Shown: positions 18,086 through 58,158 of the stretch, in pieces | Numbering within the stretch: position 1 is the first letter of the stretch | Layout of the letters: the number at the start of each line of letters is the position of its first letter | Origin: Ignavibacteriota bacterium | GTDB lineage: Bacteria; Bacteroidota; Ignavibacteria; UBA10030; UBA6906 | Direction of reading: 5' to 3' | Assembly: GCA_963837815.1 (NCBI GenBank) | Contig: CAWIOS010000012.1 | Coordinates: 783,005 to 847,004, forward strand | DNA: 64,000 nt | Translations under genes and position numbers: made by a program | Notes under the pieces: model-generated | Databases searched by the model: none | What the model was told of the DNA's origin: nothing | Seen by the model: the letters and a program-made list of their open reading frames with translations, nothing else

Positions 18086-18171
18086 GTCCTTCCCTCCGTT
18101 TGCAGTATTAGACAAATATATTGCAGTTTCGGTTTATTTGCAAGAAATTGGAAAAAAGACCGGGATTGCCG

Positions 18172-19407
18172 ATGAAAAGAGTGCTGACACTTCTCTGTGC
18201 GATGACCGTCGCAAGCGCGACGTTTGCCCGCCCCCCACAGGTGATCACGGGAATCGAAGTCCTTCGCGAAGAGCATTTTGCCCCCCTGAAGGGGAAGAGG
18301 GTGGGACTCATCACGAACCCGACGGGGGTCGATTCGCGTCTCCGATCAACAATTGACATCCTCGCATCCGCCCCCGGGGTAACGCTCGCAGCCCTCTTCG
18401 GGCCCGAACATGGCGTGCGGGGGGATCACGCGGCGGGGGACCGGGTGGATTCAGACACCGACAGGGTAACGGGACTCCCCGTCTACTCGCTCTACGGCAG
18501 GACCCGGAAACCGACACCGGAAATGCTGAAAGGGATCGATATACTCGTGTACGACATACAGGATATCGGGTGCAGATCGTACACGTACATCAGCACAATG
18601 GGACTTGCCATGGAAGCGGCCGCCGGGAGCAACATTCCATTCCTCGTGCTTGACCGGCCGGACCCGCTCGGGGGGGTGAGAGTGGAAGGGAACCCCACGG
18701 AGAAGGGCTTCGAGTCGTTCGTAAGCCAGTATCCCGTCCCTTACGTCTACGGGCTCACGTGCGGAGAGCTGGCACAGTATCTCAACGGGGAAGGACTGCT
18801 TGCCGGCGGCGTCCGCTGCGCGCTGACGGTGATCCCGATGAAGGGGTGGAAACGGGGGATGACGTTTTCCGAAACCGGCCTCCCCTGGGTGCCGGCATCC
18901 CCGCATGTTCCGGAGGCCCACTCTCCCGCGTACTACGTCTCTTCGGGCCTCCTGGGGGAACTGGGGGTCATCTCGGAGGGAGTGGGATACACCGTCCCGT
19001 TCCAGGTGTTCGCCGCCGGGTGGATTGACGGGAATGCGCTCGCGAAAAAACTGAACAACCTCAATCTTCCCGGGGTTCTGTTTCGGCCGACAAGCTTCAC
19101 CCCGTTTTACGGCAGGTTCAAGGACGAGGAACTGCACGGGGTGCAGGTGCATATCGCGCCCGGGGCGGGCGCAAGCCTGATGAGCATCCAGTTTCTTATC
19201 ATGCAGGCACACAATGAACTGTATCCGGAGAAGAACCCTTTCGCGCTTGCGGATCCGGCCAGGCTCAAGACGTTCGACAGGGTCGCCGGGAGCGACAGCG
19301 TGAGAATCCTCTTCACGAAACGGATGACGTACGGAGACGTGAAGCCATTTCTCGAAAAAGAGATCGACGGATTCAGGAAGAGAGCAACAAAGTACATGCT
19401 GTACTGA
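18172..19407 (+). CDS. namZ: DUF1343-family exo-beta-N-acetylmuramidase-like protein (NamZ-like)
   Basis: ORF 18121..19407; start MKRVLTLLCAMTVASATFA (signal peptide) at 18172. DUF1343 signature region (GLITNPTGVD…LFGPEHGVRG…YDIQDIGCRSYTYISTM…LVLDRPDPLGG). Confidence 0.7.
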   Translation: MKRVLTLLCAMTVASATFARPPQVITGIEVLREEHFAPLKGKRVGLITNPTGVDSRLRSTIDILASAPGVTLAALFGPEHGVRGDHAAGDRVDSDTDRVTGLPVYSLYGRTRKPTPEMLKGIDILVYDIQDIGCRSYTYISTMGLAMEAAAGSNIPFLVLDRPDPLGGVRVEGNPTEKGFESFVSQYPVPYVYGLTCGELAQYLNGEGLLAGGVRCALTVIPMKGWKRGMTFSETGLPWVPASPHVPEAHSPAYYVSSGLLGELGVISEGVGYTVPFQVFAAGWIDGNALAKKLNNLNLPGVLFRPTSFTPFYGRFKDEELHGVQVHIAPGAGASLMSIQFLIMQAHNELYPEKNPFALADPARLKTFDRVAGSDSVRILFTKRMTYGDVKPFLEKEIDGFRKRATKYMLY

Positions 19408-29858: not shown

Positions 29859-29907
29859 GTAGTATCAACGTTTGAAAGGCAATGCGCGTTCCAGTCCCGG
29901 CGTACCC

Positions 29908-31401
29908 TTACGGCGCGCGGTGCAGCCGGCGGGCGCGGATCTCGATCGTGCGTATTTTATCCTTGTACAGATTGTTCAGGTTCATCTTCGCAATCCCCGG
30001 GTCCGCGTCCGAATTCCCGTCCCACCTCCGGCAGAGGTAGATCGGCTCATAAATCCGGCCGACGCGGTACCGGCGCGAAACGGCAAGCCCGACCGCGTAG
30101 TCCTCGCCGTAGCTCACGTTCGGGATATTCAGGCGCCTCAGGACCGGGGTGAAGAACGCCCTGGGCGCGCCGAAACCGTTGACGCGGAGCGCGTTGTTCG
30201 GCCCGTTTTCGGGGGTCCACTCCCTGTGATCGACGACTCCCGGGGGGATCTCCCTGAGGTTGAAATCCGTCATCCGGTAGCTCCCGACGACCATCGCGCA
30301 CCTGTCCCGCCGGAACCTGTCGACGATCCTGCTCAGCGTCGAATCATCGAGATACAGGTCATCACTGTCAAGCTGCGCCGCGAACCGGCCGCAGGAGGCG
30401 GAGTGCACCGCTTCGTTCCAGCACCCGCCGATCTGAAGGTCGTGCGCTTCCGGAACGATGTGGATCAGACGGGAGTCACGCGACGCGAACGTCCGGAGGA
30501 TATCGGTCGTCCCGTCCGTCGAATGATTGTCGACGACGATGACGTTGAACGGGAACGAGGCCTGCTGGCGCAGGGCGGAGGTCACGGCGTCGCCGATCGT
30601 GTTGGCCCGGTTGCGCACCGGGATCACGATCGATGCCGTGACGGGAAATTTCCCCTCGTCCAGGTCGACCGTCTCCCTGACAGGCTTCAGCCAGCCCCCG
30701 GTCTTCTTCAGGTGGTGCGTAACGGCTTTCTCCATCTCGAGCTGGACGACGCGATTCTTCGGATCGACGTAGTCGAAAAGCCTGGCCCCCTCCTTCCTTG
30801 TGTCGGGCTCGGTCTTCGTGTAGAGCATTTCGGCGATCCTGAAGACTCCTTTCTTCCTCGCAACGGCAAGCCGGAGGGCGAAGAAGCCGGCGTGGCGGGA
30901 GTCGCCGATCTCCCCGGCCGCCGCCTTCAGCGCGGATGCCTCCAGGGCGACGACGGAGCCGAAGTCGAAATCGTCACGCACGCTCCCCTCCTGGCAGTCG
31001 ATCAGGGGATGCGGGGCCGGGGAGAGACCCTTCACTTCGATGAAATCGCTGTACACCATCCCCTCACCCGTCGCGCCGGCGACGGAGGCCATCCGCTCAA
31101 GGGCGAACTGCCCGAGCCGGAGGGCGACGTCGTGGAGAACCAGGAGCGCATAGGGGGTCACCGTTTTCGCCGCGATCTTCCTCATCGTCGCGGAGGAGTT
31201 CAGCGCGTTGACGCGAAGCGGCGTGCATCCTTTGAACGGGACGGGCGCGCTCCCCGGGGCGAGGACGTACACCTTCCCGACGATGGCGGACCCGGCGAGC
31301 TGCGCGATCGTATGCCCGGCGGCATCGCTTCCGCCGTACGGAACAAACGCCGTGAAGACAGGTTTCGCTCCCGCGGCGGCTTTCGTGTGAGGACGTTTCA
31401 T
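29908..31401 (-). CDS. Two-domain protein with C-terminal family-2 glycosyltransferase (GT-A) domain
   Basis: 497 aa; GT2 signature [21 protein letters not shown]…[12 protein letters not shown]…DSDD (DxD) in C-terminal half; N-terminal about 240 aa of unknown function. Confidence 0.7.
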
Positions 31402-31411
31402 CAGGGTTCCT

Positions 31412-32689
31412 TCAGGTTTTCTTGCCGAAATCCTTGTCGATGGTGATGAGCGCGGTAACGATGAATCCGGGGATGGTGGAGAGCATCACCCAGAGGTAGA
31501 AAGTCGGATACCCGAGCCATTCCTGGAGCGCGCCGCTGAACATGCCGGGGACCATCATCCCCAGAGCCATGATTCCCGTGCAGATCGCGTAGTGCGCGGT
31601 CTTGTGTTCCCCCTCGGAGACCATGATCATATACAGCATGTACGCGGTGAATCCGAATCCGTACCCGAACTGCTCGAGAGCCACGGCGACGTTAATCAGC
31701 AGGAAATTGTCCGGCTGCACCTGCGACAGATAGACGAACATCAGGTCCGGCAGATGCATGACGATGACCATCGGCCAGAGCCAGAACCTGAGCCCCCTGC
31801 GGGGGATGACGAATCCCCCGAGAAGCCCGCCGGCCGTCAGCGCGACGATGCCTACCGTCCCGTACACGATTCCCACATCGCTCGTCGAAAGACCGAGCCC
31901 TCCCTTTGTCCTCGGATCGAGAAGGAACGGCGAGACGAGCTTGATGAGCTGCGACTCGGCAAACCTGTAGAGGAGAAGGAAAGCGAGCGTCGAGAGGATG
32001 CGGGGTCTTGTGAAGAACGCCCCGAAGACTTTGAAGAAATCCGCCAGAGGGGTCGTCACTCCCCCGCTCCGGACCCGGGCGTCGCCGGCAGGGTACGGAA
32101 GCATCAACCTGTGATAGAGGAAGAAGGCGAAGAACATCACGGCAAGTATGCCGAATGTCAGCGACCAGGCGAGCGCCGTATTCCCCCCCGTGTGCGTCTC
32201 GACTGTCCCTGCAAAGAACACGAGCGCACCCTGTCCGGTCACCATCGCGATCCTGTAGAACGTTGAGCGTACGCCCACGAATGCCGCCTGCTCGTGCTCC
32301 TGCAGACCCAGCATGTAGAAGCCGTCCGCCGCGATGTCGTGGGTGGCGGAAGCGAATGCCATGAGCCAGAACAGGACGAGCGTGGCACGGAAGAAGCCCT
32401 GCACCGGGATCGTGAATGCGACCGCGGCGAGCGCAATGCCCAGGATGAGCTGAAGCGTGACGATCCAGAGCCTCTTCGTGCGGACCAGGTCAACAACCGG
32501 TCCCCAGAGCGGCTTGATCACCCAGGGAAGGTAGAGCAGGCTCGTGTAGAGTGCGATATCGGTGTTGGATATGCCCATCCGCTTGTACATGATCACCGAT
32601 ACATTCAGGGCGATGACATACGGGAGCCCTTCGGCAAAGTACAGGGAGGGAATCCAGGCCCACGGGTTGCGTCGTTCAGGCCGGTTCAT
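31412..32689 (-). CDS. ampG: MFS muropeptide permease AmpG family
   Basis: 425 aa, 12-14 TM; AmpG-type N-terminus (…[56 protein letters not shown]…). Confidence 0.8.
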
Positions 32690-33282
32690 GCGCCGGCCCC
32701 TTTTTCGCCGGCCGATGCGGACGGAGGATCAGGCGGCGGGACCGGTGGGACGAGCAGCCTGAATCCGATCAGGTGATTGACTGTCGTTTTCCCCATCGTG
32801 AACGGGGATTCTTCCACAAATGTGAATCCGAGCGCCTTATACCACGCAATCGTCGGGGCGTTTTCGGACATGACGCCGAGCCAGACCCTGTCGTAGCCGG
32901 CCCCCCGTGCGGCGCGGAAAGCCTCCTCCATGAGCTTCGATCCAAGCCCGTGCCCCTGGCACGCGGGCAGGACATAGATCGAGGCGACGTGACAGCGCCC
33001 GGAATCCCGATCGGACGACATGATCATGTACCCGCCCGGATTCCCGTCCAGGAACGCGATGTACCCGCTCGTGGAGGGTTTCCGGAGGTTCCGGACGAGC
33101 GCGTCCGTCGAATAATGCTCGTCGTGGTAGGCCCGGAGGTCCGCCTCGGGGATGAACATTCCGTACGCGGCCTTCCATGTCTCCCAGCCGATTCGCCGGA
33201 CGTCGGGTATGTCACCTTCGGTCCAGGGCCTGATCAACGCAGTGTGAACACCGGGCCCGCTCTCACTCATCGCATCCGTCAA
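32686..33282 (-). CDS. GNAT family N-acetyltransferase
   Basis: 198 aa; acetyl-CoA binding motif (VLPACQGHGLGSKLMEEAFRAARGAGYDRVWLGV). Overlaps ampG start by 4 nt and the amidase 3' end by 20 nt, so translationally coupled. Confidence 0.75.
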   Translation of the reverse strand: MTDAMSESGPGVHTALIRPWTEGDIPDVRRIGWETWKAAYGMFIPEADLRAYHDEHYSTDALVRNLRKPSTSGYIAFLDGNPGGYMIMSSDRDSGRCHVASIYVLPACQGHGLGSKLMEEAFRAARGAGYDRVWLGVMSENAPTIAWYKALGFTFVEESPFTMGKTTVNHLIGFRLLVPPVPPPDPPSASAGEKGAGA

Positions 33283-35056
33283 GAAAATCGTCTATGCCGT
33301 CGACGATCCGACCGGCAATCCTGTGCCGGAACTCCGGATCAATCAGGTTCATCTCATCGGAAGGATTGGAAACAAACGCCATTTCGACAAGGACATTCGG
33401 GAGCTCCGTGGGCGCATTCATCGAGAAATTGAAGCTCCCGACGTTGCCGAAGAGCGGAAGTCCGGTTTTCAGCATATTCCTGATGATCGCCATCGCGAGG
33501 GGACGGTAGCAGATGTATTTATAGAACGTCGCGGTCCCCCGCGTGTTCTCCGGATTTGTCGTCAGTCCGATCGAATTGGAGTGGATGCTTATCAGGATAT
33601 CCGCCCCCGACGAGAGGACCTTCCGCACGCGGTCGGCCATTGGAACGTCGGGATCCCCGTCCCTCGTGAGGATCACGCGGGCGCCGCGGTCCTCGAGCAT
33701 GGATTTAAGATCTTTCACGACGGCAAGATTTATCTCCTTCTCGAGGGCACCGGTTGACCCGAGCGCACCGAGGTTGTCCCCGCCGTGACCCGCGTCCAGC
33801 GCGAACGTGAGCGCCTTGATTTTGAGTTTCTCCGGCTGGCGGCGGACCTTGATGACGAGTCCCGCGGGGTTGTAGCCGATTTCATATCCCCAGATCTGCC
33901 TGTGCTTGAGCTCGATCGTGATCCGGAAGACGCCCGCGGAGGGCTCTGTGTAGTACACGTTCTGGATCTCGCGGGTCGTGAGTTGCTGTATGATCCAGTT
34001 CGTGTTCGACGTCGCGCCGTAGAGATCCACGTTGATCCGCGTCGGTCCGGTCTCCGTCGTCGAAGAGTACGGAAGCCGCAGCGGGATCCCGACCGTCACG
34101 TAGTCGTACTTTTCGTCCCCGTACACCATGCAGTTCTCCGTGAGGGCCGCGGGAAGACGGGCGCCCTTCGGGATCAGGTCCACGTTTTCCGCGGCGATCC
34201 AGGCTTCCTGGCCCGGAGCCAGCGCCACGCGGTACGCGCTCCCGTGCTTCCCCGTAATCGCAAGACGTATCCCGGGATTGATGAACGACATCTTCGCGCC
34301 CCCCAGCCGATCCTCGCCGAGGCCGTAGGCGAGCGCGGGCCGCTCCCCCTTTGTGACGCCGATGTACGGAAAGTCGGCCGGCCTCATCGTGACGGTTCCC
34401 TTCGAGACCGTCTCCAGGGCCGCGCCCGAGCCGTTCTCCAGCCTGAACCTGACCTGATGAGAAGAAAGGGTATCATCATCCCGCACGGTGTACACACCCC
34501 GGTAAATTCCCCCCAGGCCATGGGCGTACGCGGGCTTCACTTCCGTCATCGGGATCCCCAGGTCGCATGACGCTTTGCATCCCGGCGTCCCCTTGAACTG
34601 CACCTCCAGCCGGTCATCTTCGTTCAACCAGACGTCGTCAGAGGGTTCCGTCATGATCGTGTCAATGACAAGGACGGAATCCGGTGAAGTCTCCGGCGGC
34701 GCTTCGCGGATGACAAGGAACGACTTTGAAATGGAATCCCCCTTCGCACCCGTCGCAGTAAGCGTGAACCGGTTTTCGCCGACATTCAGCGTAAGGAGGC
34801 CCGCCGTGGCCCCCGAGGGATAGACCTTCAGGGGGGAGCCGTTGATCGTGAGCCTGTTCCCCGGCACGGTACCCGCGGAGAGCCTGTATGTGCCCGTGGA
34901 AGCCCGAACCGTGTCCGACTCCGGAACGACAAGGCGGATAAAATTCGGGTGCGGGGGAGGGGATTGCTGGGCATCGGCGGAGGCGATCATCGTCAGAGAG
35001 AGGACGAGTGCCACACTCAACGACGCCAGAGGTGTGCGCATGTCAATGGTTTTCAT
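33263..35056 (-). CDS. Periplasmic N-acetylmuramoyl-L-alanine amidase (Amidase_3 / AmiC-like) with N-terminal accessory beta-rich domains
   Basis: 597 aa; signal peptide MKTIDMRTPLASLSVALVLSLTMIASADA (GAGGGA RBS). C-terminal Amidase_3 motifs ALDAGHGGDN…EKEINLAV…ISIHSNS…(Zn ligands H/E/H). Confidence 0.8.
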   Translation of the reverse strand: MKTIDMRTPLASLSVALVLSLTMIASADAQQSPPPHPNFIRLVVPESDTVRASTGTYRLSAGTVPGNRLTINGSPLKVYPSGATAGLLTLNVGENRFTLTATGAKGDSISKSFLVIREAPPETSPDSVLVIDTIMTEPSDDVWLNEDDRLEVQFKGTPGCKASCDLGIPMTEVKPAYAHGLGGIYRGVYTVRDDDTLSSHQVRFRLENGSGAALETVSKGTVTMRPADFPYIGVTKGERPALAYGLGEDRLGGAKMSFINPGIRLAITGKHGSAYRVALAPGQEAWIAAENVDLIPKGARLPAALTENCMVYGDEKYDYVTVGIPLRLPYSSTTETGPTRINVDLYGATSNTNWIIQQLTTREIQNVYYTEPSAGVFRITIELKHRQIWGYEIGYNPAGLVIKVRRQPEKLKIKALTFALDAGHGGDNLGALGSTGALEKEINLAVVKDLKSMLEDRGARVILTRDGDPDVPMADRVRKVLSSGADILISIHSNSIGLTTNPENTRGTATFYKYICYRPLAMAIIRNMLKTGLPLFGNVGSFNFSMNAPTELPNVLVEMAFVSNPSDEMNLIDPEFRHRIAGRIVDGIDDFLDGCDE

Positions 35057-35140: not shown

Positions 35141-36490
35141 TCAGTATATGTTCGCAATGGACGTGCCGGGAAAGTAATGAGAAAGTATGGAGTCGGACTC
35201 GTACCCGAGATCGCCCATGACGGCTGCGCCGATCTGGCAAAGGCCCACCCCGTGCCCCCATCCCGCTCCCGTGAGAACGAAACGGCCGGGAACGCCGCCT
35301 TTGATTTCACTCCTGTCGACCACGAATGCCGAGCTGTACAGGTGCGACGGCGAGAGCGTCCGGCGGATCTCGAGCTCCTTGCCGATCGTCAATACCCTCT
35401 TTTCCCCGACGATCTTCAGGAGCGTGAGCCGCCCCGACGGACCCCGCTCGACCGGCGCAAGGTCAAGAATAGCCCCGAAATCGATGCCGGTTTTCTCCCT
35501 GATGAGCGCGGCGATGTTCTCCTGATCATACTCAGCTTTCCACCGGTAGAAATCGGCCGTTTCCTGATCGTACTTGAGGAGAACCTGTGAGAGGATGCGG
35601 GAGTCCGCCGTGTTGCAGAATGCGCGCGGGGAGCTCCTGATCCATCGGTCCGCCAGATCCTCCCGGCTGACATCGGGGAGAGAAAGAAAGCCGGGAAGGC
35701 GGTCAGACGGGGGAATGTCGGCCACGTTGACAAGGTACGGGATCCCGACGGGCTGCCAGACATTGCCAAACGGCTCGGTGATTCCTCCGCAGGATTTCGA
35801 GAACCGGGCATCGCAGATGCGGCCGTCGTGCATGACCACCTGTCCCCGTGTCAGGTTCACGGCCTGACTGACCGCCGCCGTGTTCGACTTCGTTACACCC
35901 TGGTACCGCTGGCAATGGTCGTCTGCGCAGACGTCGAAGAGCTCGTGTTCCTCCCTGTCGTACCACCTGACAAGGCGATCGCTTTCCCCTGTAATCGCCG
36001 GGAGACGAATTCCCTCCTCTTTCAGCCGGCGCGACCGTTCAATCTGCGCCAGGAGCCAGCTTCGGGAGGTGATCGCGTGCGCCTTCAGGAGATTCATGGA
36101 ACTCCCGGCGCTCATTTCCGACGAGATGACGCTCTCAAGATAGTCTTCGACCGGGACGACATTGATCGCCACGACATCGCTCCCCTTCGTCACGAGCCGC
36201 AGGGCCCCCGTGAACCGCTGGTCTTCTTTCCGCTCCCAGTGGAAGCGGATACCGATGACGACGCTGCGGATGACGAACGAGACCCCCGCCCCCCCGGACT
36301 GAGTCAGGAGAACCCCGGAATCGAACAGGGAACGTTTGCCGCCGCACTCTATGAGTATGGAAGCCCCGGAGACCGAGGCCCGGATCCGCCCGCGGAGAGT
36401 CCCCCCCGATCCCGGGACGTCAAAATCCCCTTCCACGTCCACAGCCGACGCCGTGAGAATGCCGACGGTTATTGTTGGTTCTGCCGTCAT
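35141..36490 (-). CDS. SpoIID/LytB-domain protein (amidase enhancer / lytic transglycosylase-type)
   Basis: 449 aa; hallmark C-terminal SpoIID motif GAGWGHGVGLCQIGAAVMG; start abuts stop of NagZ fusion gene (36490/36492). Confidence 0.8.
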   Translation of the reverse strand: MTAEPTITVGILTASAVDVEGDFDVPGSGGTLRGRIRASVSGASILIECGGKRSLFDSGVLLTQSGGAGVSFVIRSVVIGIRFHWERKEDQRFTGALRLVTKGSDVVAINVVPVEDYLESVISSEMSAGSSMNLLKAHAITSRSWLLAQIERSRRLKEEGIRLPAITGESDRLVRWYDREEHELFDVCADDHCQRYQGVTKSNTAAVSQAVNLTRGQVVMHDGRICDARFSKSCGGITEPFGNVWQPVGIPYLVNVADIPPSDRLPGFLSLPDVSREDLADRWIRSSPRAFCNTADSRILSQVLLKYDQETADFYRWKAEYDQENIAALIREKTGIDFGAILDLAPVERGPSGRLTLLKIVGEKRVLTIGKELEIRRTLSPSHLYSSAFVVDRSEIKGGVPGRFVLTGAGWGHGVGLCQIGAAVMGDLGYESDSILSHYFPGTSIANIY

Positions 36491-36491
36491 G

Positions 36492-39431
36492 TTACTGCCC
36501 GGTTCCTGTCACCCCGAGAGCCCGCATCACGGCATCGTTGACGGCGGGGCGGACCCTGGCGATCTTCTGGTTGGCGCGTGTCGGAAAGACCCGGTTTGTG
36601 AGGAATATGACCGCAAGATTGCGTGACGGATCAGCCCAGATGCAGCACCCGGTGAAGCCGGTGTGCCCGAACGACGCGCCGGAGAAGAGTGCTCCGGCGG
36701 ACGAGCCATGCGGCGACTTCATCTCCCATCCGAGCCAGCGTTCCTGTCCCGGGGCGCGCTTCTCGATGAAATCCGAAACGGTTTTCTCGCTCAGGTAACG
36801 CCTGCCGGCGTAGACTCCCCTGTTGAAGAGCATCTGCATGTATATCGCCAGATCGCTCGCAGTGGAGAAGAGTCCGGCGTTTCCCGACACGCCCCCCATG
36901 AACGCGGCGTTCTCGTCATGGACGGCTCCCCGGACAATGGTCTTCCGCCAGGAAGTATCAAGCTCCGTCGGCGCGCAGCGGGCACGGAGGGATTCCGGGG
37001 GGACGTATGTCGTGTTCCTCATGCGGAGGGGAACGAAGAATTCCCTCTTCACGAAGGCATCGAGCGTCATTCCGGTGACTTTTTCGACGAGTTTCCCGAG
37101 CGTGATGAACCCGAGATCGCTGTACACGGTGGAGTCGCCCGGCGCTGCGACGAGGGCTGTCGCGGCGATCGTGTCGATCACCCCGGCAGGGTCCGGGCAT
37201 TCGAGCCAGAGCCTGCGGAAGGGGGGAAAGCCTCCCCTGTGGAGCAGCAGGCTGCGGATTGTGACTCCGGCCTTCTGCCCGGTTTCAAACCGGGGGAGGT
37301 ACTTTGCGACCGGATCATCAAGCCCGATCCTCCCGCTGTCGACAAGTTTCATGACGGCCGACGTCGTTGCAATGACTTTCGTGACGGATGCGAGATCGTA
37401 CATCGTCCCCTCGTCCACAGGAGGCGAGGCAGGATCGTATGTCAGCCTCCCGAACGACCTGTCGTAGACGAGCAATCCGTCTTTGACGATGGCGAGCTGG
37501 CCCCCGGGAAACGCCGAATCCGCCACGGCGCTGTTGACGATGCCGTCCACTCGCTGCAGGTCTTCGGGATCAAATCCCGCCAGGGACGGGTCATCGCGCC
37601 TGAGCTGCGTCTGCGGAAGATCCAGGCCGGTTCCGAAGGGGTATTTCCCCGGAATGGAGACAGGGAGCCGGCCGTGCACCGGGATCTCGCCGAAGAGAGC
37701 TTCGGCCGCCGCTTCGCTTACAGGCTCGTCGTCGCCGTAGAGGCAGACGATCGATCCGGCATCCGGGATGCTCCCGGCGATATACGGGTTCCCGAATGCA
37801 AGGACAACGAGGGGGGTGTTCGTCTCCGCGACACGGGCGGCGAACGTGCGGAGGTAGTCGGGAAGCTCGATTCTCCCCGATGCCGTGCGGACTTTCACAA
37901 ACAGGGCCAGTATTGCCGCGTCTCCTTTCCGTATGCGTGTGACCGCGTCGTTCAGCTCGCGCACGTCGCTCCCGGGGGTAAGGCGGAGTATGTCGCTCCC
38001 CGGCGAGCGGTGCCGGAGGAGCTGGGCGAAGTAGGCCCCGACGGGTTCGCTTGTGGCAGGGCTGCCCGGCCTGTCCACGTCAGTCCTGTCATCCTCCGTG
38101 TCCCCGGCAAGAACGGCGACGATGTGCATGGGGCCGTCAGGGGGGAGGGGAAGCAGGCCGTTTTTGTTTCTGAGAATTGTGACGGCGTCCTGGGCGATCT
38201 CACGGGCAAGATGCCGGTTCGGCCTCGTGCCGATATGTGCGCCAATGGCGTCAATATCAACGGTCCGCCCCCTGTCAAGCCCGAGCTGATGCTTCATTGC
38301 GAGTATCCGGCGAACGGACTCGTCCACCCGCTCCCGGGGTATTTCCCCCCGCCGGACGGCAGCCACCACGGCGTTCACCGCCAGATCGGGATCCGGGGGA
38401 ACGAGGAGGATGTCCGCCCCCGCCCGGACGGCAAGAACCGCCACGGTATCCGCCGGGTACCCGCGCGTGAGCGCCCGCATCTCCAGTCCATCGGTGACGA
38501 TCAGCCCGTTGAACCCGAGTTCCTTCCTGAGGAGGCTCGTCACCATCGCCGCGGAGAGGGAGGCGGGGAGGCCGAGTGAATCAAGCGCGGGAACCGCAAG
38601 ATGGCCGATCATGACGGACTGGACGCCGGCGTCGACGGCCGCCCGGAACGCGGCCAGCTCCACCGTGTCGAGACGGGCGCGTGAAAGATCAATGACGGGG
38701 AGTTCGATATGCGAATCGGTTCCCGTGTCACCGTGTCCCGGAAAATGTTTCACGGTGGCAATGCAGCCGCCGTCGATTGTCCCCCGGATGAACGATGCCA
38801 CCATCGTGCGGACGAGCGCCGGGTCATCGCCGAACGAACGGGTGTTGATGACCGGGTTGAGAGGATTATCGTTGATATCGGCAACCGGCGCATAGTTCTG
38901 GTGTATTCCGATTGTGCGCGCTTCCACAGCCACCGCTTTCCCCATCCGGTAGGCGTACTCTGCATTCCGCGTCGCCCCGAGCGCCATGGCATCCGGAAAC
39001 CGTGTCCCCCTCCTGACGCGCATGGCGATCCCCCGCTCGAAGTCGGACGCGACAAGGAGGGGTATCCGGGAGAGGGACTGCAGCCGGTTGAGGAGGACCG
39101 CCTCGGAATAGACGTCCCCCTGGGCCATGATGATGCCGCCGACCCTGCGGACCGTGACGAGCCGCTCGAGGCGCTCAAAGAGGTCGCTGTCGGTGCTGTA
39201 GTAGTGACCGAACGCGCGCACCATGACCATCTGGGAAACCTTCTCTTCGAGCGACATCGAGGAGAGAAGCGAGTCGAGTGCTCCCGGGGTCCCCCAATCG
39301 GAGGGGACGGCGGGCTGGAGCGGCGCGGCGCGTCTCTGCAGCTGCGCGGGGATCGTTGCAGGGGGAGGTGCACATGCGGAGAGCAATCCGGAGAGAACGG
39401 CAGCCGAAAGGAAGAGGAGATGTCTTTTCAA
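36492..39431 (-). CDS. Lipoprotein fusion: GH3 beta-N-acetylhexosaminidase (NagZ-like) + serine beta-lactamase/PBP-like (AmpH/class C-type) domain
   Basis: 979 aa; TTG start at 39431 with AAGGAGGA RBS; lipobox LLSAC. GH3 N-terminal motifs (KHFPGHGDTGTDSH, IVTDGLEM); C-terminal domain with S-x-x-K (LASVTKVIATTSAVMKL) and penicillin-binding fold; ends HTGFTGCCIWADP. Confidence 0.8.
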   Translation of the reverse strand: MKRHLLFLSAAVLSGLLSACAPPPATIPAQLQRRAAPLQPAVPSDWGTPGALDSLLSSMSLEEKVSQMVMVRAFGHYYSTDSDLFERLERLVTVRRVGGIIMAQGDVYSEAVLLNRLQSLSRIPLLVASDFERGIAMRVRRGTRFPDAMALGATRNAEYAYRMGKAVAVEARTIGIHQNYAPVADINDNPLNPVINTRSFGDDPALVRTMVASFIRGTIDGGCIATVKHFPGHGDTGTDSHIELPVIDLSRARLDTVELAAFRAAVDAGVQSVMIGHLAVPALDSLGLPASLSAAMVTSLLRKELGFNGLIVTDGLEMRALTRGYPADTVAVLAVRAGADILLVPPDPDLAVNAVVAAVRRGEIPRERVDESVRRILAMKHQLGLDRGRTVDIDAIGAHIGTRPNRHLAREIAQDAVTILRNKNGLLPLPPDGPMHIVAVLAGDTEDDRTDVDRPGSPATSEPVGAYFAQLLRHRSPGSDILRLTPGSDVRELNDAVTRIRKGDAAILALFVKVRTASGRIELPDYLRTFAARVAETNTPLVVLAFGNPYIAGSIPDAGSIVCLYGDDEPVSEAAAEALFGEIPVHGRLPVSIPGKYPFGTGLDLPQTQLRRDDPSLAGFDPEDLQRVDGIVNSAVADSAFPGGQLAIVKDGLLVYDRSFGRLTYDPASPPVDEGTMYDLASVTKVIATTSAVMKLVDSGRIGLDDPVAKYLPRFETGQKAGVTIRSLLLHRGGFPPFRRLWLECPDPAGVIDTIAATALVAAPGDSTVYSDLGFITLGKLVEKVTGMTLDAFVKREFFVPLRMRNTTYVPPESLRARCAPTELDTSWRKTIVRGAVHDENAAFMGGVSGNAGLFSTASDLAIYMQMLFNRGVYAGRRYLSEKTVSDFIEKRAPGQERWLGWEMKSPHGSSAGALFSGASFGHTGFTGCCIWADPSRNLAVIFLTNRVFPTRANQKIARVRPAVNDAVMRALGVTGTGQ

Positions 39432-39434
39432 GCG

Positions 39435-40373
39435 TCAATCCTCCTTCATGCCGGCCATCGCCAGCAGGAGGGCGCCGTGCGCCGGTCCGTTCATGGGCGG
39501 GTCGATATGCGCCGCGGGAACGCTCTTCCTGATCTCCGCTTCCAGCATGCGCGAATAGATCGAACCGTGGTCGATAAGACCGCCGATCATCACAACCCCG
39601 GCCCCGCCCCGCATGCCGAGCCGGTCGATGGCGGCAACCACCTGGAGGGCAAGGGCCCCCGAGGCGCGGGAGAGTATGTCCAGCGCCACAGCATCGGATG
39701 ATTCCGCCGCTTCAAGAACCGCCGGCGCAATCGATGGTATGTCGAATTTCTCCCTGTACACGGCTGCAATGATCCTCTCGCGCGTTGCGAGGCCGAACCG
39801 GGACGAGAGGACCATGCGAAGCCGGCCGGCCTCCCCCCTTCCGTCGATCTCCCTCGAGACCGCCTTGATGGCCTCGAGTCCGATACGGTAGCCGCTCCCT
39901 TCATCCCCGATCACTCTTCCCCACCCGCCGATCGAGATTGTCTCGCCGGCGGGCGATTTTCCCATGACGACCGAGCCGGTCCCCGCGACGGCGACGACAC
40001 CGGGGCCCCCGTTGAACGCCCCCTCGAGCGCGACGCGGCCGTCGGACTGGATGGAGATGGGAACGGGAGGAAGTCCCATCATACGGAACCGGGCGTGGAT
40101 CGCATCGGTCAGGACCTGACGGTCCCGTTCGGACCCCGCCCCCGCGAGTCCCAGCACGGCGGAGCCGATATCGGCAACGGGTCGGGCGGCGGTCTTTGCG
40201 AGACCTGCTATAAGCTCCGCCAGATTCAGCGCGACAATGTCGATGCCGAACACATTCTGATTGGAGCCGTTCCCCCTGCCGCGCGCGAGAACCGTGCCGG
40301 TACCATCGGCGAGGAGACCCGTGGTCTTGGTGCCGCCGCCGTCAACGCCGAGCACGAGAGAGTGATGTGCCAA
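39435..40373 (-). CDS. BadF/BadG/BcrA/BcrD-type ATPase: N-acetylglucosamine / N-acetylmuramic acid kinase (MurK/NagK-like)
   Basis: 312 aa; N-terminal ASKHA phosphate-1 motif LGVDGGGTKT; overall BadF-type sugar kinase pattern. Confidence 0.75.
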   Translation of the reverse strand: MAHHSLVLGVDGGGTKTTGLLADGTGTVLARGRGNGSNQNVFGIDIVALNLAELIAGLAKTAARPVADIGSAVLGLAGAGSERDRQVLTDAIHARFRMMGLPPVPISIQSDGRVALEGAFNGGPGVVAVAGTGSVVMGKSPAGETISIGGWGRVIGDEGSGYRIGLEAIKAVSREIDGRGEAGRLRMVLSSRFGLATRERIIAAVYREKFDIPSIAPAVLEAAESSDAVALDILSRASGALALQVVAAIDRLGMRGGAGVVMIGGLIDHGSIYSRMLEAEIRKSVPAAHIDPPMNGPAHGALLLAMAGMKED

Positions 40374-40378
40374 TGGGA

Positions 40379-42913
40379 TTATTTCAGAAGTTCTATTTTT
40401 GTTGTCCTGACAAATCGGATTCCCCCCCCCGCATCCGATGCGATCATGCGGACGAAGTACACCCCGCTCCCGAACGAGGCGGCGTTCCAGACCGCCGAAT
40501 GCGAGCCGGCCGCCACCTGACCGTCCACGAGGCTCGCGACCTCCTGGCCCAGCAGGTCATACACTCTCAGCGAGACGCGCACGCCGGCCGGGACGCGGTA
40601 GGCGATGACCGTCGACGGGTTGAACGGGTTCGGGTAGTTCTGGCTCAGGGCATACTCCGCAGGAATCGCGGGAGCCGGCGGCGGGACGGAAACGATCACG
40701 GACCTCAAGAGTTGAAGCTGGTCGACGAGGACCAACCCCGATCGCGCGCTCACCCCGGGGAGATAGCGGAACTGGAACGCGTCAAAGCGCATCTGCCCGC
40801 CGAGGTTCGGAGCGCCGAGCCAGGAACCGACGGAGTCGTTGGCAAGATCCCATTCCACCAGCCTCCATCCAACCCAGTCGAGCGGGTACCAGCGGCTCAC
40901 CTTGTGGTTTTGTGGCCTCCCCCCGGGATAGATGTCGACGCTGTCCTCGATGCCAAACCGGAACTGGCTCAGATCGCCCTCGTTGTACACGAACGCCTCA
41001 AGCACCGTCCCCTGTTTCTGAAAGAGGATCGAGCGCTCCGGAGCGAGAGTATCGAGCGGCACGCGCAGGAGCCAGGACGACGCGGCCGTGTCCCATGCGT
41101 ACCTGAGCAATCCGGCGACCGGATCGCCCGCCAGTGCAGGGAACGCGGTGCTCTCGATAGAGTCGAACGACGCCGTGTCGACGCCCGTCGTGTAGGGCGC
41201 GGTCATCGGCTGCCTCCACTGCACCGGGCGCGTATTGAACGAGTCAATCGTCGTTGTGATGCGCGACAGGGGCTGGACGGAAAATGACCAGACGAGCGGT
41301 GAAGTGCCCGGGATGATGTTCCCCGTCATATCCTTCGCGCCGCTCACGCTTACCGTATAGGATGCGCCGGGCTCAAGTCCTCCGGTGACGAAGATATTGA
41401 CGCCGCTCCTGGAGGGCGTCCCGATGTACATGACGGTCCGCGCGAGCGAGGGGAGACCGCCGATTTGTCCGATCCTGAAATTCGCCGTGGTGACCGTCGC
41501 CGGGTTCAGCGGTTCATCAAACGTGATGTTGACCGTGGTGTACGGCGTCGCCACCGTCATCGCGGAATCCGGGAACCGGGAGAGGATGACGGGCGGGTTC
41601 AACCGGACAATTTTCGTCCGGAAGCCGAGAATGAACGGATGGCCGGGAGTCCCGACGCCGGTCCCGTCAACAGGCTGGCCCGAGGCGCTGCGGGCGTTCG
41701 TATCGACCTTCACGGTGAAATTGACAGGAAACGGGAACGGAGCGACCGGCGTGAACGTCAGGATCGTGTTGTCCGGGTCCCACGAGAGACTCCCGGTGAC
41801 CGCGGGGGCGATCGAAAAGGCCGCGCGGACGGATGCGGTGTCCATCGGTGCGGAGAAGTGTATCCCAACCGCCGTCCTCGGGTCCACGGACGTATCCCCG
41901 TTCACCGGACTCGTCGAGAGGACAACCGGGAACCCGGTCGATGCGAGCGTCCGGTCAACGAACACGGTGGCGCCGGTTCCCACGACAACGGCGATGGAAT
42001 CCGTCCTGTAGCCGGGAGTCTCGAAACGGACGGTGTAGGAACCGGGAGCGAGGCTGTCGAACATGAAGAAGCCGTTCTTGAACGCGTCCCCGCCGTACAC
42101 CCTGCCGGAAGGAAGCAGTCTCACGCGGGTATTGTTCACGGGAGCCCCGCCGGCAACATCGGTCTGTATCCCCGCGATGATGCCGCGCGGATCGGCCGGA
42201 ACGCCGAAGTACTGCATGAAGGCGTTCCGGATGGCATAGGCTTCCATTTTGTGGTAATCGTTGTTCAGGAGACGCCGGCACTCCGGATAGAAGTCATGGA
42301 ACGAACCCTCGGAGAGCTCTCCCGGCATCAGAAGGCCGCTCAGCACGCCCAGGTTGTACCCGCCCGCCGGACCTCCGTAAAATGTGTAGTCAAGCCAGGT
42401 GCTCGTGCTGCTCGTCCGGAGCATCCCCTGTATCGCCGGACCGATCAGATTCGACATCGTGACGTCCTGCGGGAACGCGGCAGTGCGCGTCGGGATGTCT
42501 TCCTTCACGAGCATCAGTGTATAATTGATGCTCGTGTTGTCCGCCAGCCCGCTCGCGTTGGAGTGTATCGAGTGAAACCAGTCGACGTTGTTCGCGTTGG
42601 CGAGCTGCCAGCGCGCCGTGAGGCTCGGCTCGTCGTTCCCGTCGGGATACGTCGTGTCGTTCGACGTCCGGGTCAGTATGACCGTCGCCCCCTGCCGCCA
42701 CAGCAGCTCCCTGAGGAGGAGCGCCTTCTCGAAGTTGCTTTCCGATTCCCAGAAATTCACACCCGGATCCGGCTGGACATTCCGGTCGTCACTCGAATAC
42801 CCGCCGTGCCCCGGATCGATGCAGAATTTCAACCCCGAGAGGTCGGACCTCTGCGCCACCGCGAGAGACGCAGAAAGGACGACGATGCATGTCAGAGGAA
42901 GTCTCCTGCTCAT
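40379..42913 (-). CDS. T9SS-secreted N-acetylmuramoyl-L-alanine amidase (N-terminal Amidase_3 catalytic domain, Ig-like/beta-sandwich repeats, C-terminal Por-secretion sorting domain)
   Basis: 844 aa; signal peptide; Amidase_3 motifs CIDPGHGGYSSDD…NFEKALLLREL…FHSIHSNA. C-terminal about 80 aa …QNYPNPFNPSTVIAYRV…VYDLLGQEVASLVDG…GSGVYFVRMIASDAGGGIRFVRTTKIELLK matches type-A T9SS CTD. Confidence 0.75.
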   Translation of the reverse strand: MSRRLPLTCIVVLSASLAVAQRSDLSGLKFCIDPGHGGYSSDDRNVQPDPGVNFWESESNFEKALLLRELLWRQGATVILTRTSNDTTYPDGNDEPSLTARWQLANANNVDWFHSIHSNASGLADNTSINYTLMLVKEDIPTRTAAFPQDVTMSNLIGPAIQGMLRTSSTSTWLDYTFYGGPAGGYNLGVLSGLLMPGELSEGSFHDFYPECRRLLNNDYHKMEAYAIRNAFMQYFGVPADPRGIIAGIQTDVAGGAPVNNTRVRLLPSGRVYGGDAFKNGFFMFDSLAPGSYTVRFETPGYRTDSIAVVVGTGATVFVDRTLASTGFPVVLSTSPVNGDTSVDPRTAVGIHFSAPMDTASVRAAFSIAPAVTGSLSWDPDNTILTFTPVAPFPFPVNFTVKVDTNARSASGQPVDGTGVGTPGHPFILGFRTKIVRLNPPVILSRFPDSAMTVATPYTTVNITFDEPLNPATVTTANFRIGQIGGLPSLARTVMYIGTPSRSGVNIFVTGGLEPGASYTVSVSGAKDMTGNIIPGTSPLVWSFSVQPLSRITTTIDSFNTRPVQWRQPMTAPYTTGVDTASFDSIESTAFPALAGDPVAGLLRYAWDTAASSWLLRVPLDTLAPERSILFQKQGTVLEAFVYNEGDLSQFRFGIEDSVDIYPGGRPQNHKVSRWYPLDWVGWRLVEWDLANDSVGSWLGAPNLGGQMRFDAFQFRYLPGVSARSGLVLVDQLQLLRSVIVSVPPPAPAIPAEYALSQNYPNPFNPSTVIAYRVPAGVRVSLRVYDLLGQEVASLVDGQVAAGSHSAVWNAASFGSGVYFVRMIASDAGGGIRFVRTTKIELLK

Positions 42914-43967: not shown

Positions 43968-46328
43968 TCAGCTCCGGTCCTCCGTGACTTTCCTGAGCTC
44001 CCTGACCATCTCATAGAATTCGGCAAGCGCCATCTCCCGGAGGAATATCATCCCGCGTGCGGCGCGAAGCCTCGGATGCCCGTTCTTCAGGAAGAAGTCC
44101 GTCCCCAGTATCGTCTTGATCATCCCGTACTGGCCGACCTGGATCTTTTGCGCAAGCTCGGAGAACGGACCGTCGTGCTCATAGCTCGGAAAGGATGCCG
44201 CGCTCTGCGAGCCGAAGCAGTTCATGAATGCCGTGTGGAGCATCGTGATGGAGTTGATCGACACCGGGACAAACAGGTTCGCCTCCGCCGGGCGGTACCT
44301 GTACCAGACGTTCCTGTATCCCCACACCCGCAGCGTGGAATCGCCGCTCTCTTTCTCGTAGAGCTTCAACGCCTCGGCCACGGCCTGGAGGGCTTTGTAA
44401 TGCGTGTCGGGCCCGCTCCCTTCCGGGTCGAATGCGACGGAGACGACGTTCGGCCGGACTTTACTGATCAGCTCGAAGATCGGCACGACGTCCCTGTGGA
44501 CTTCGGGTTCCGGCGAGAATATGTCGCCCGTGTAGAAACCGAGCCTCAGCGGATGGATCGCGTACGATTCGATGCCGAAATACGCCCAGAGGAGCTCCAC
44601 CTCCCATTCGCGCGTCATCCCCTTGAGGAGCTGGACCTGCTGCGGGTCCTTGGCGCCGCTGTACTGCGAGCGGCAGTAGCCGATGAGCTCCTGAACACGG
44701 TTGCGCAGCGTGTGGAGGTCATGCGTCTGGTACAGGCCGACGAGATTGCGGAGCAGGCGCCTCGCTTCCGCCTCGTCCTTCATCTCCTGGCTGTTCGCCG
44801 CGGCCCCGTCGAGATAGAGATAGACGTCCTCCATGCGGGAGGCGTTTTCATGCGTGTCGAAGTACCCCTGCACCAGCAGGGCGAAAAGCGTGCCGGTCTC
44901 GAGATGGCTTTCGAGCTTCACGAGGATCGAGAGGAAATACGGGTTCGAGACCGATGTGAAACCGGAGGTCAGGTTGGCGAAATAGTGCTTGTTGCTTGGA
45001 TCGCGGACGAGATGGTAGATGTGCGCGAGGTAGCCGAGCATGATGTCATCGTGATGGGGCTCGGTGTGCAGGAATGTCGTATTCGACACGTGGTCGAGAC
45101 CCTTCTCGATCTTCCCGATGATCCTGTTGCGCGCTTCCGTGGCGAGGTCGACGGGCATCTTCCCGCTCTTGCGCAGCAGCTCGGAGGCAAACCGGTCCCC
45201 CTCGAAATCCTCTTTCGTGAGCTGGACGAGCTGCTTCCCCGATTTCAGGGCGAGCGTCGTCACGACGTCCTCGGAGCGCGCGGGCGTGAGCGTGGTCTCC
45301 CTGCAGAAATCCTCGAACTGCCGCTCCGTAAGGAGGCTCGCGGCACCACGCGTGAGGTAGAACCGGGCATTGGGGAGATCCTGGAGAACGGAGGCGGGAT
45401 ACTGCGGCCCCTTTTCGTTCTCGACGGCGAGCCGGACGATCGCGGCCTTCGCGTCCCCGGCGGCGATAATGATCGCGACGGCCCCGGGGTTGTACGTGAT
45501 CGTCGCAAGCCCGATCGTAATCACAAGCCGCGTCCGGGAAATCTCGATCCCGCCCAGATCCGTGGCGGCGGCCGCCTGCGTCTCGTAGTTGGTGCCCGTC
45601 AGCCGCGTCACCGAATAGACGCTCGACCCCCTCACGTTGAACGCGATGTGTCCGTCCGGCCCGATCCCGCCCAGGAAAAACCCGATACCCCCCATCTCCC
45701 GGACCTTTGTCTCGTATTCCATGCAGAATTCGTCCACCCGGTTGATGACGTCTTTCTGCAGGAGCTCGAGATCCGAGCGGCACTGCCTGACGCGGAGCGA
45801 GAGATCGACGACGCTGCCGGGGAACACCTCGTCCATGGTCTTGCCGGGGGGAAGCCCCAGCGACGTGGCGTTGATGAGCAGGGCCCTGGAGGGGGACATG
45901 CCGAACCCCTTGATGTAGAATTCGTTGACGTACCAGTGGAAGCTGTTATGCTGCGCCGCGTTGATCGGATAGAATTCGTCGATCTGGACGAAGCTGAGCG
46001 ACCTCATGTCCGGCGGCTTCGACCCGTCGATCTCCGCGGCCGCGAGGAGAGACTGGATGTCCTTCGTCTCCCACCGTTCCAGGATGCGCGTCACCCACTT
46101 GATGAAATGCTCGGGTGTCTTTCCGGTGGGGAGCGATATCACCCCGCCGGGATTCCTGATGACCCACTCGATAAACCGGAGCGCGGTGAGCTTCCCGAGC
46201 TGCGGGAAATTCGCAACCTCCACGATTCCGATCTTTTCCGTGGGCGCATACATGGGTTTGCGTCCGCTCCGCTGGAGCTCCATTTCTTCGATCCGGGATG
46301 TCCCGTCATACTGCCTGAGGTTTGCCAT
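43968..46328 (-). CDS. Fusion protein: glucosamine-6-phosphate deaminase/isomerase-like (NagB) domain + LmbE/PIG-L-family N-acetylglucosaminyl deacetylase domain
   Basis: ORF 43968..46406; probable start MANLRQYDG at 46328. N-terminal NagB-like region (…VISLPTGKTPE…FVQIDEFYP…GIGPDGHIAFN…); central LmbE motif FLHTEPHHDDIMLGY (AHPDDE-type). Confidence 0.7.
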   Translation of the reverse strand: MANLRQYDGTSRIEEMELQRSGRKPMYAPTEKIGIVEVANFPQLGKLTALRFIEWVIRNPGGVISLPTGKTPEHFIKWVTRILERWETKDIQSLLAAAEIDGSKPPDMRSLSFVQIDEFYPINAAQHNSFHWYVNEFYIKGFGMSPSRALLINATSLGLPPGKTMDEVFPGSVVDLSLRVRQCRSDLELLQKDVINRVDEFCMEYETKVREMGGIGFFLGGIGPDGHIAFNVRGSSVYSVTRLTGTNYETQAAAATDLGGIEISRTRLVITIGLATITYNPGAVAIIIAAGDAKAAIVRLAVENEKGPQYPASVLQDLPNARFYLTRGAASLLTERQFEDFCRETTLTPARSEDVVTTLALKSGKQLVQLTKEDFEGDRFASELLRKSGKMPVDLATEARNRIIGKIEKGLDHVSNTTFLHTEPHHDDIMLGYLAHIYHLVRDPSNKHYFANLTSGFTSVSNPYFLSILVKLESHLETGTLFALLVQGYFDTHENASRMEDVYLYLDGAAANSQEMKDEAEARRLLRNLVGLYQTHDLHTLRNRVQELIGYCRSQYSGAKDPQQVQLLKGMTREWEVELLWAYFGIESYAIHPLRLGFYTGDIFSPEPEVHRDVVPIFELISKVRPNVVSVAFDPEGSGPDTHYKALQAVAEALKLYEKESGDSTLRVWGYRNVWYRYRPAEANLFVPVSINSITMLHTAFMNCFGSQSAASFPSYEHDGPFSELAQKIQVGQYGMIKTILGTDFFLKNGHPRLRAARGMIFLREMALAEFYEMVRELRKVTEDRS

Positions 46329-46341
46329 AGCGTCCGTCGTG

Positions 46342-54149: not shown

Positions 54150-54223
54150 AGGAAATGATGGTTCCGATTGACGCGCGGCGGATTTCAAGGATCCCGGCAC
54201 ACTGGAATCTACTGAATTTCCCG

Positions 54224-55769: not shown

Positions 55770-55854
55770 GACGCACTCCTGTGTTGGTGATTGGTGATGT
55801 GGAACCGCGTGCCAATGTGAAACGGTGAAGCGATGGTGCCAGTGAACACAACGT

Positions 55855-58139: not shown

Positions 58140-58158
58140 TGAATACCCCGGTTCAGTT

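Follow-up and report, generated by a model that had tools for sequence, protein, structure and literature searches.

The 64,000-nucleotide stretch of an Ignavibacteriota genome considered here (contig CAWIOS010000012.1, forward-strand positions 783,005 to 847,004; 'the window' in what follows) encodes on its minus strand, at 36492..39431, a 979-residue lipoprotein in which a NagZ-type glycoside hydrolase family 3 (GH3) enzyme is fused to a serine hydrolase of the beta-lactamase fold. With a probability of about 0.62 this protein is a lipid-anchored exo-enzyme with two functions that works in the periplasm in the turnover or salvage of peptidoglycan, being a Rosetta-stone fusion of NagZ (YbbD) and AmiE (YbbE). 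To judge by its relatives, the C-terminal domain is most likely an AmiE-like amidase that takes the whole stem peptide off N-acetylmuramic acid (MurNAc). Removal of the entire stem peptide, rather than the trimming of D-Ala-D-Ala stems that had been proposed from the bare sequence in the original prediction, is preferred for this second activity because of the kinship of the domain with AmiE/YbbE and with Escherichia coli penicillin-binding protein (PBP) 4B, its motif set, its other fusions, including those to NamZ and AnmK, and the peptidoglycan-turnover island in which the gene lies; the further suggestion that the two halves act in sequence in the periplasm remains plausible.

On sequence grounds the gene is real and its product is a periplasmic lipid-anchored lipoprotein. 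Its coordinates had at first been given without a strand; the 979-codon open reading frame (ORF) runs from 39431 to 36492 on the minus strand and ends in a TAA stop at 36494-36492. The GC content of third codon positions is 77.6% in this frame, which marks it as the coding one. The plus-strand translation of 36492-39431 is riddled with stop codons and a reading on that strand was rejected for that reason; a 638-residue plus-strand ORF at 36663-38579 is a shadow ORF in a genome of 61% GC. Initiation at TTG behind a ribosome binding site was seen correctly at the outset: the start codon is 39431-39429, and seven nucleotides 5′ of it is the Shine-Dalgarno-like AAGGAGGA (39439..39446, minus strand, read directly in the sequence), which falls within the kinase gene upstream, at its 3′ end; the TGA stop of that gene is 39437-39435. 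The start region on the minus strand reads ATGAAGGAGGATTGACGCTTGAAAAGA. Just 3 nucleotides separate the gene from that kinase gene and 1 nucleotide separates it from the SpoIID gene downstream. The N-terminus, LKRHLLFLSAAVLSGLLSAC, is a signal peptide followed by a lipobox, L-S-A-C, that ends at Cys20 (residues 1-20, 39372..39431, minus strand). Invariance of Cys20 in an alignment of 41 sequences, together with a signal peptide with terminal Cys in most of the 40 homologue N-termini displayed, supports both the TTG start and the assignment as a lipoprotein, and a strict lipobox pattern matches 55 of 93 N-terminally complete homologues. Forms of 921 residues among the homologue records reflect the choice of Met59 as start by some gene callers.

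The Pfam matches confirm the fusion of a GH3 enzyme to a beta-lactamase-fold domain: Glyco_hydro_3 at residues 61-378 (PF00933, E 1e-86), Glyco_hydro_3_C at 418-596 (PF01915, E 9e-11) and Beta-lactamase at 629-958 (PF00144, E 7e-66), which with the secretion signal is the architecture of RmNag3 from Rhodothermus marinus. A homology search with the whole protein returned 6348 database proteins at E<=1e-20 and all of the best 120 share the fusion, one of them lacking a precomputed GH3_C hit and one being an N-terminally truncated fragment; with such numbers the fusion is far beyond chance. The named matches are Bacteroidota and Ignavibacteriota metagenome-assembled genomes, and the 120 homologues in which motifs were surveyed are 52-87% identical to the protein. 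An AlphaFold2 model (mean predicted local distance difference test score, pLDDT, 85.1; predicted template modelling score, pTM, 0.83) shows residues 21-41 as a disordered tether and the inter-domain junction, about residues 596-628, as well ordered (pLDDT about 87-95). The high pTM and the ordered junction suggest that the two catalytic modules are held in a fixed arrangement behind a disordered 20-residue tether.

Its sequence identifies the GH3 half as a two-domain NagZ beta-N-acetylglucosaminidase of the YbbD type. The N-terminal TIM-barrel catalytic domain (38298..39251, minus strand; 291.8 bits) spans positions 2-315 of the 316 in its profile, and the C-terminal alpha/beta sandwich domain (37644..38180, minus strand) scores 42.5 bits against a cut-off of 31, with the alignments to the solved structures 6k5j and 3bmx extending across it. 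The signature KH(F/I)PG(H/L)GxxxxD(S/T)H, which sets NagZ enzymes apart from GH3 glucosidases, is present as K228-HFPGHGDTGTD239-S-H241, containing the NagZ Asp-His dyad, and aligns with the YbbD motif; the nucleophile, Asp314 in IVTDGLEM, aligns with VIVTDALNM of YbbD (D318 in B. subtilis NagZ, BsNagZ). Signature (as KHFPGHGxxxxDSH) and nucleophile are both kept in 119 of the 120 homologues. By sequence, the solved structures nearest to this half belong to GH3 beta-N-acetylglucosaminidases, namely 6k5j (E 5e-78), 3sql (E 7e-77) and YbbD/NagZ itself, 3bmx (E 7e-70), and the top Foldseek matches of the model in the Protein Data Bank (PDB) are BsNagZ chains, including 4gyj, a complex with N-acetylglucosamine (GlcNAc)-MurNAc.

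The C-terminal domain (36558..37547, minus strand) carries S682-V-T-K685, the SVTK already recognized at the outset, together with Y770-S-D772, H838-D-E840 and H923-T-G925, all invariant or nearly so in the 120 homologues, Thr924 being present in 112. This conservation argues that it is catalytically intact and not a mere binding module; the lack of catalytic motifs that would have refuted the original prediction is not observed. The motifs for which an alignment had been recommended, SxN and KTG, are not the ones found, nor is the YxN of AmpH and AmpC. By far the best NCBIfam model is that of PBP4B (NF002968, 190.7 bits), the next beta-lactamase-fold family giving 74.6, AmpH 58.5 (cut-off 266) and class C beta-lactamase 46.6 (cut-off 415). 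The domain is 34% identical to E. coli YfeW/PBP4B over 376 residues (E 7e-58) and 32% identical to a 441-residue Bacillus orthologue of AmiE/YbbE (E 5e-54). The YfeW sequence was taken from the K-12 murQ-murP-yfeW operon. The stand-in for AmiE is the PF00144 gene between murP and nagZ in the murQ-murR-murP-amiE-nagZ-namZ locus of B. stercoris, whose NagZ shares 97% of its residues with B. subtilis YbbD, the query, B. subtilis 168 not being among the 80 loci listed. AmiE and YfeW are 53% identical to each other (E 2e-170) and score 762 and 890 bits respectively with NF002968; with such identity, and with AmiE at that level on the PBP4B equivalog model, the two sequences belong to one orthologous family, of which the domain in the window is a more distant relative. 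In a five-way alignment YSD, VHDE and GVSGxAGLFS are common to the C-terminal domain, AmiE and YfeW, while E. coli AmpH has YSN and AmpC has YAN and neither carries YSD, HDE or GVSGxAGLFS; in these two the HTG region aligns poorly and the third motif was unmatched by the search pattern used. No solved structure of AmiE or PBP4B is in the PDB copy searched, and the domain finds its best PDB matches among esterases and in Pab87, none of them scoring much above 100 bits. A role as a class C beta-lactamase, or in resistance, was rejected, the class C models reaching at most 47 bits against cut-offs of at least 415.

Other proteins into which this domain has been built point in the same direction. 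An exhaustive HMMER search with the domain gave 4,655 cluster representatives (clustered at 50% identity) at E<=1e-30, and the best 150 of them were surveyed for fusions: 94 have GH3 followed by the domain and one (P0226) has the reverse order, 32 are stand-alone proteins of at most 470 residues, shorter fragments included (those of about 380-450 residues being 42-47% identical), and 23 have other extensions. Among the latter kinds of partner recognized by Pfam are AnmK, in two apparently cytoplasmic proteins that have no signal peptide (P0251 and P0246), NamZ in both orders (Beta-lactamase then NamZ in P0148, NamZ then Beta-lactamase in P0252) and, once, an AmiA-like domain (P0216, Beta-lactamase with PF07313). 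SxxK, YSD, HDE and HTG are kept in all of these NamZ, AnmK and AmiA-like fusions but one, P0252, which does not have an exact HDE. In 12 representatives with unassigned N-terminal extensions no further Pfam domain was found, except for one partial GH3_C. Three further proteins of 1256-1617 residues (P0130, P0134 and P0138) have tandem domains of the AmiE/YfeW type, about 50% identical to AmiE, and two of them have FIVAR or fn3 modules in addition. NagZ, NamZ and AnmK all act on MurNAc or 1,6-anhydro-MurNAc (anhMurNAc) directly before or after the removal of the stem peptide. The fusions to NamZ and AnmK fit an amidase, and not a DD-carboxypeptidase, because the substrates required, a terminal MurNAc devoid of peptide for NamZ and free anhMurNAc for AnmK, are both what an amidase would provide.

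In Bacillus, AmiE (YbbE, O05213), a PF00144 protein (PMC10653849), was shown biochemically to be a MurNAc-L-Ala amidase (PMC8054146, PMC5061867), and NagZ, AmiE and NamZ act one after another at the non-reducing end, the first taking off GlcNAc, the second the stem peptide and the third MurNAc (PMC8054146, PMC5061867, bioRxiv 10.1101/2021.12.02.470905); these statements on AmiE function draw on later papers of the group that first described it. In the first step the GH3 part of the fusion would release GlcNAc from the non-reducing terminus of GlcNAc-MurNAc(-peptide) or GlcNAc-anhMurNAc(-peptide) by means of the nucleophile Asp314 and the Asp239-His241 dyad, for which homology and the assayed relative RmNag3 give strong support. 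Ser682, Lys685 and Tyr770 would then hydrolyse the N-acetylmuramoyl-L-alanine amide bond of the newly exposed MurNAc-peptide, which would thereby lose its entire stem peptide and remain as free MurNAc or as a glycan that ends in MurNAc, and the fusion would keep the amidase beside the sole enzyme that creates its substrate. The gene neighbourhood suggests how the products may be handled: NamZ would cut off the terminal MurNAc left by the amidase step, the sugars would be imported by an AmpG-like permease of the major facilitator superfamily (MFS) and phosphorylated by a co-transcribed BadF/BadG kinase, and the peptides would be degraded by a YkfC-like NlpC/P60 peptidase, an L-Ala-D/L-Glu epimerase-like enzyme and a racemase.

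The genes concerned lie in or near a minus-strand operon whose members follow one another closely, at intervals of -20 to +84 nucleotides, in the order PD40 protein, a protein with Amidase_3, Big_5 and a type IX secretion tail, BadF/BadG kinase, fusion, SpoIID, AMIN-Amidase_3, GNAT, AmpG-family MFS, family 2 glycosyltransferase (GT2), DUF4922 and Asp/Glu racemase. The BadF/BadG-family sugar kinase, NagK- or MurK-like, directly upstream of the fusion (39435..40373, minus strand; PF01869, E 2.5e-40) has NagK_SO3507 as its best NCBIfam match at 99.7 bits, under the cut-off, and a kinase of this family is directly upstream of the fusion in all eight loci inspected, that is the window and seven relatives with fusion homologues of 52-82% identity. 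Directly downstream is a SpoIID/LytB-family protein, a putative lytic transglycosylase (35141..36490, minus strand; PF08486), with a counterpart at the same position in relative L083/L084, then an AmiC-like zinc amidase with AMIN and Amidase_3 domains by Pfam (33263..35056, minus strand) and, further on, the AmpG-family candidate muropeptide permease (31412..32689, minus strand; Pfam MFS_1/BT1), which scores 171.7 bits with TIGR00901, below the cut-off of 350. A homologue of NamZ, the family GH171 exo-beta-N-acetylmuramidase, is encoded on the plus strand at 18121..19407 (tblastn, 69% identity to the NamZ of relative L085; NamZ_N E 4e-84 and NamZ_C E 8e-35 by Pfam); it is adjacent in three relative loci and 17 kb off in the window. 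NamZ, AmpG-like MFS, GT2, DUF4922, GNAT and Amidase_3 accompany the kinase-fusion pair in four of the seven relatives; in the other three (L089-L091) housekeeping genes surround the pair, and it has no further cell-wall genes in its vicinity.

Of the known systems, RmNag3 (Rmar_0925) is the nearest. It is a GH3 beta-N-acetylglucosaminidase that carries a beta-lactamase domain in addition, at its C-terminus, and it hydrolyses p-nitrophenyl-GlcNAc and chitobiose (PMC6987092). As its architecture is described, it shares with the protein in the window GH3 domains 1 and 2 plus a beta-lactamase domain, as well as a signal peptide and a host in the Fibrobacterota-Chlorobiota-Bacteroidota (FCB) group, and a periplasmic role in peptidoglycan turnover is proposed for both, GlcNAc-releasing activity having been measured for RmNag3. 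Unlike the fusion with its peptidoglycan island, it has an rRNA methyltransferase, an ATPase and a regulator as gene neighbours, and its authors tied the beta-lactamase domain loosely to beta-lactamase induction rather than to AmiE, which they name solely as a separate Bacillus enzyme (PMC6987092). The architecture, treated as unusual when the gene was first noted, is accordingly already published and is widespread in Bacteroidota-group bacteria. In the literature searched the RmNag3 paper alone describes it, no explicit description of a 'NagZ-AmiE fusion' was found, and that literature holds no link between the beta-lactamase domain of this architecture and AmiE. What is contributed here is a better-founded functional assignment, an annotation correction, and not a new kind of system.

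The resemblance to B. subtilis is one of parts and of proposed order. YbbD is, like the GH3 half, a two-domain lipoprotein NagZ with an Asp-His dyad, and AmiE has the SxxK, YSD, HDE and HTG of the C-terminal domain; both the B. subtilis operon and the window encode nearby a NamZ and a kinase or transporter handling MurNAc or GlcNAc, and in both the proposed order of action is NagZ, then AmiE, then NamZ. In B. subtilis, however, NagZ and AmiE are secreted as two separate exo-enzymes, both encoded in the murQ-murR-murP-amiE-nagZ-namZ operon (PMC8054146, PMC5061867), whereas in the window they are one polypeptide; NagZ comes first in it, while in Bacillus amiE precedes nagZ. The host of the fusion, unlike B. 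subtilis, is Gram-negative and of the Bacteroidota group, and uptake would be by the AmpG-like MFS with the BadF/BadG kinase instead of the MurP phosphotransferase system with MurQ. PBP4B is the best-scoring characterized family for the C-terminal domain and has the same motif set, and yfeW, as last gene of murQ-murP-yfeW, is encoded with MurNAc catabolic genes as the fusion is; in distinction to the domain, PBP4B is a stand-alone protein of 434 residues annotated as a penicillin-binding DD-carboxypeptidase. The E. coli K-12 yfeW gene (L001, 2548102-2549406) and the Bacillus amiE gene (L004, 4548-5870) thus carry conflicting names and functions within one orthologous family.

The peptidoglycan-salvage cluster of Tannerella forsythia, Tanf_08345-08385 (Gtf, Gtf, LytB, AmpG, NamZ1, MurT, MurK and MurQ), resembles the neighbourhood of the fusion in having one or more glycosyltransferases, a SpoIID/LytB-like protein, an AmpG-like permease, NamZ and a sugar kinase, the T. 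forsythia MurK being presumably of the BadF/BadG type. As described it does not include a NagZ-AmiE fusion, and among the window ORFs scanned there is no MurT or MurQ.

Several points weigh against the reading of the fusion as a NagZ-AmiE enzyme. The score of the C-terminal domain is well under the NF002968 equivalog cut-off of 385 bits, which places it in a related yet distinct subfamily, and 32-34% identity to AmiE and YfeW is modest. It is without two segments that AmiE and YfeW share, an insert of about 10 residues before VHDE and an insertion of about 10 residues in the C-terminal tail, and because of these absences its specificity could differ. Two Amidase_3 zinc amidases are already encoded in the island, and so the amidase step is not otherwise missing. 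The structural evidence is confined to the confidence measures of the model, pLDDT and pTM, and to matches of its fold. The RmNag3 study left the beta-lactamase domain out of its assays and modelling (PMC6987092), and E. coli PBP4B was reported to be a DD-carboxypeptidase (Vega and Ayala 2006, as cited in PMC5061867 and PMC4916385).

That report bears on the possibility that the C-terminal domain acts as a low-molecular-mass PBP of class C type, with DD-carboxypeptidase or endopeptidase activity, that trims the terminal D-Ala of pentapeptide stems after or alongside GlcNAc removal. The domain does have the fold of PBPs and class C beta-lactamases with SxxK, a Tyr motif and HTG, and it has weak NCBIfam matches to AmpH and D-aminopeptidase. 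The HTG motif is as in the R61 DD-peptidase. The sole positive support for such a function is the published label of the relative YfeW, named PBP4B and listed as a DD-carboxypeptidase where it is cited in PMC5061867 (ref. 19) and PMC4916385, and it is offset by the demonstrated amidase activity of AmiE, the Bacillus orthologue of the same protein (PMC8054146, PMC5061867), and by a role of PBP4B in pentapeptide trimming in vivo that is small or null (PMC4916385). An invariant Asp replaces the Asn of YxN, there is an invariant HDE that AmpH and AmpC do not have, and the AmpH model is far from its cut-off. Fusions to NamZ and to cytoplasmic AnmK would also be senseless for a carboxypeptidase, both partners needing MurNAc or anhMurNAc freed of peptide. 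All told, D-Ala trimming is unlikely.

A different non-amidase hydrolase would be an esterase, such as a family VIII carboxylesterase-like, EstG-like or O-acetyl-MurNAc esterase that aids the NagZ half or narrows its action. The nearest solved relatives of the domain are carboxylesterases or esterase-like proteins (4ivi, 7pp3, 1ci8 and 7uda/7u1b, the last being Caulobacter EstG), and there are weak NCBIfam matches to LipL and LipE. Such matches reach no more than about 100 bits in the PDB search and 75 in NCBIfam, much below the 173-190 bits of AmiE/PBP4B, and the genomic context is entirely one of muropeptide, MurNAc and stem-peptide catabolism. An O-acetyl esterase is further disfavoured by the AnmK fusion, since anhMurNAc has no free C6 hydroxyl. 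The authors of the RmNag3 work speculated that its beta-lactamase domain affects substrate specificity (PMC6987092); even so, an esterase is improbable. Least credible of all is that the GH3 half mainly cuts chitin oligosaccharides for nutrition with the C-terminal domain as an accessory, non-catalytic or regulatory module. RmNag3 does cleave chitobiose and chitopentaose (PMC6987092), and in L089-L091 the kinase-fusion pair has housekeeping genes rather than cell-wall genes around it. The essentially invariant catalytic residues of the C-terminal domain are unexpected for a binding module, and the window has no chitinase or chitin-utilization genes and instead a dense peptidoglycan-turnover island. 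Activity on chitobiose is moreover not discriminating, as BsNagZ too reportedly cleaves artificial GlcNAc-sides.

The two-step NagZ-AmiE-like enzyme remains the preferred assignment, and beyond it a broader proposal can be entertained, though at a little short of even odds. The C-terminal domains may form a large subfamily, with thousands of cluster representatives, of predicted serine-type exo-MurNAc-L-Ala amidases with SxxK, YSD, HDE and HTG, repeatedly fused to the pathway neighbours NagZ, NamZ and AnmK. In Bacteroidota-group bacteria the NagZ-amidase fusion and NamZ would together constitute a periplasmic exo-lytic line that takes peptidoglycan strands apart one residue at a time, starting at the non-reducing end, something so far shown only in B. 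subtilis. By extension E. coli PBP4B would be an amidase under a wrong name and not a DD-carboxypeptidase.

The wider island, a peptidoglycan turnover and salvage region of roughly 30 kb at 23522-54200, is mostly on the minus strand, with NamZ on the plus strand. Further genes on the same strand as the fusion encode a class A PBP, a class-A-beta-lactamase-like protein, an L-Ala-D/L-Glu-epimerase-like enzyme, a YkfC-like NlpC/P60-SH3 peptidase and a GHL10 protein. The class-A-like domain (Beta-lactamase2) is in a 584-residue protein (46342-48096, minus strand), where its 108 bits fall short of the class A cut-off of 200. This protein also has a weak Peptidase_S11 match and a long C-terminal extension, and for it a role as a cell-wall peptidase is likelier than one in resistance. 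An 812-residue ORF (43968-46406, minus strand) has no Pfam match, as is also the case for a 786-residue counterpart at the same position in L083/L084, and a 382-residue ORF (48115-49263, minus strand) likewise has none. Beside the AmpG-like permease the GT2 gene is paired with that for DUF4922, which is GDPGP1_C-like and resembles nucleotidyl-transferases or phosphorylases (28836-31401, minus strand). The pair is conserved in five cluster-type loci, the window, L083/L084, L085 (5031-7660), L086 (5121-7643) and L092 (3558-6115), and the Tannerella salvage cluster similarly has two unexplained 'glycosyltransferases' next to AmpG; the pair might process an imported disaccharide in the cytoplasm.

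Sorting domains for type IX secretion (Por_Secre_tail) are present on several minus-strand proteins (40379-42913, 51771-54200, 54306-55868 and 57123-58175), and there is a PorV/PorP-like gene in the window; these features assign the organism to the FCB/Bacteroidota group. The combination of Amidase_3 and Big_5 in a type IX cargo suggests a secreted or surface amidase that scavenges foreign peptidoglycan. Unrelated to the fusion is a group II intron reverse transcriptase/maturase (RVT_1 and GIIM) about 8 kb downstream of its homologue in L085 (21161-21746).

Should the amidase assignment be true, a known pathway is refined and no new principle is involved, but a very common annotation would be corrected on at least hundreds, and probably thousands, of Bacteroidota-group proteins. 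For resistome surveys, abundant 'beta-lactamase-family' matches would be cell-wall recycling enzymes and not resistance genes. It would also provide independent evidence, from domain fusion, that the family of E. coli 'penicillin-binding protein 4B' consists of MurNAc-peptide amidases, and Gram-negative bacteria of the FCB group would have in their periplasm, as a fused version, the exo-lytic recycling route that B. subtilis runs with NagZ, AmiE and NamZ.

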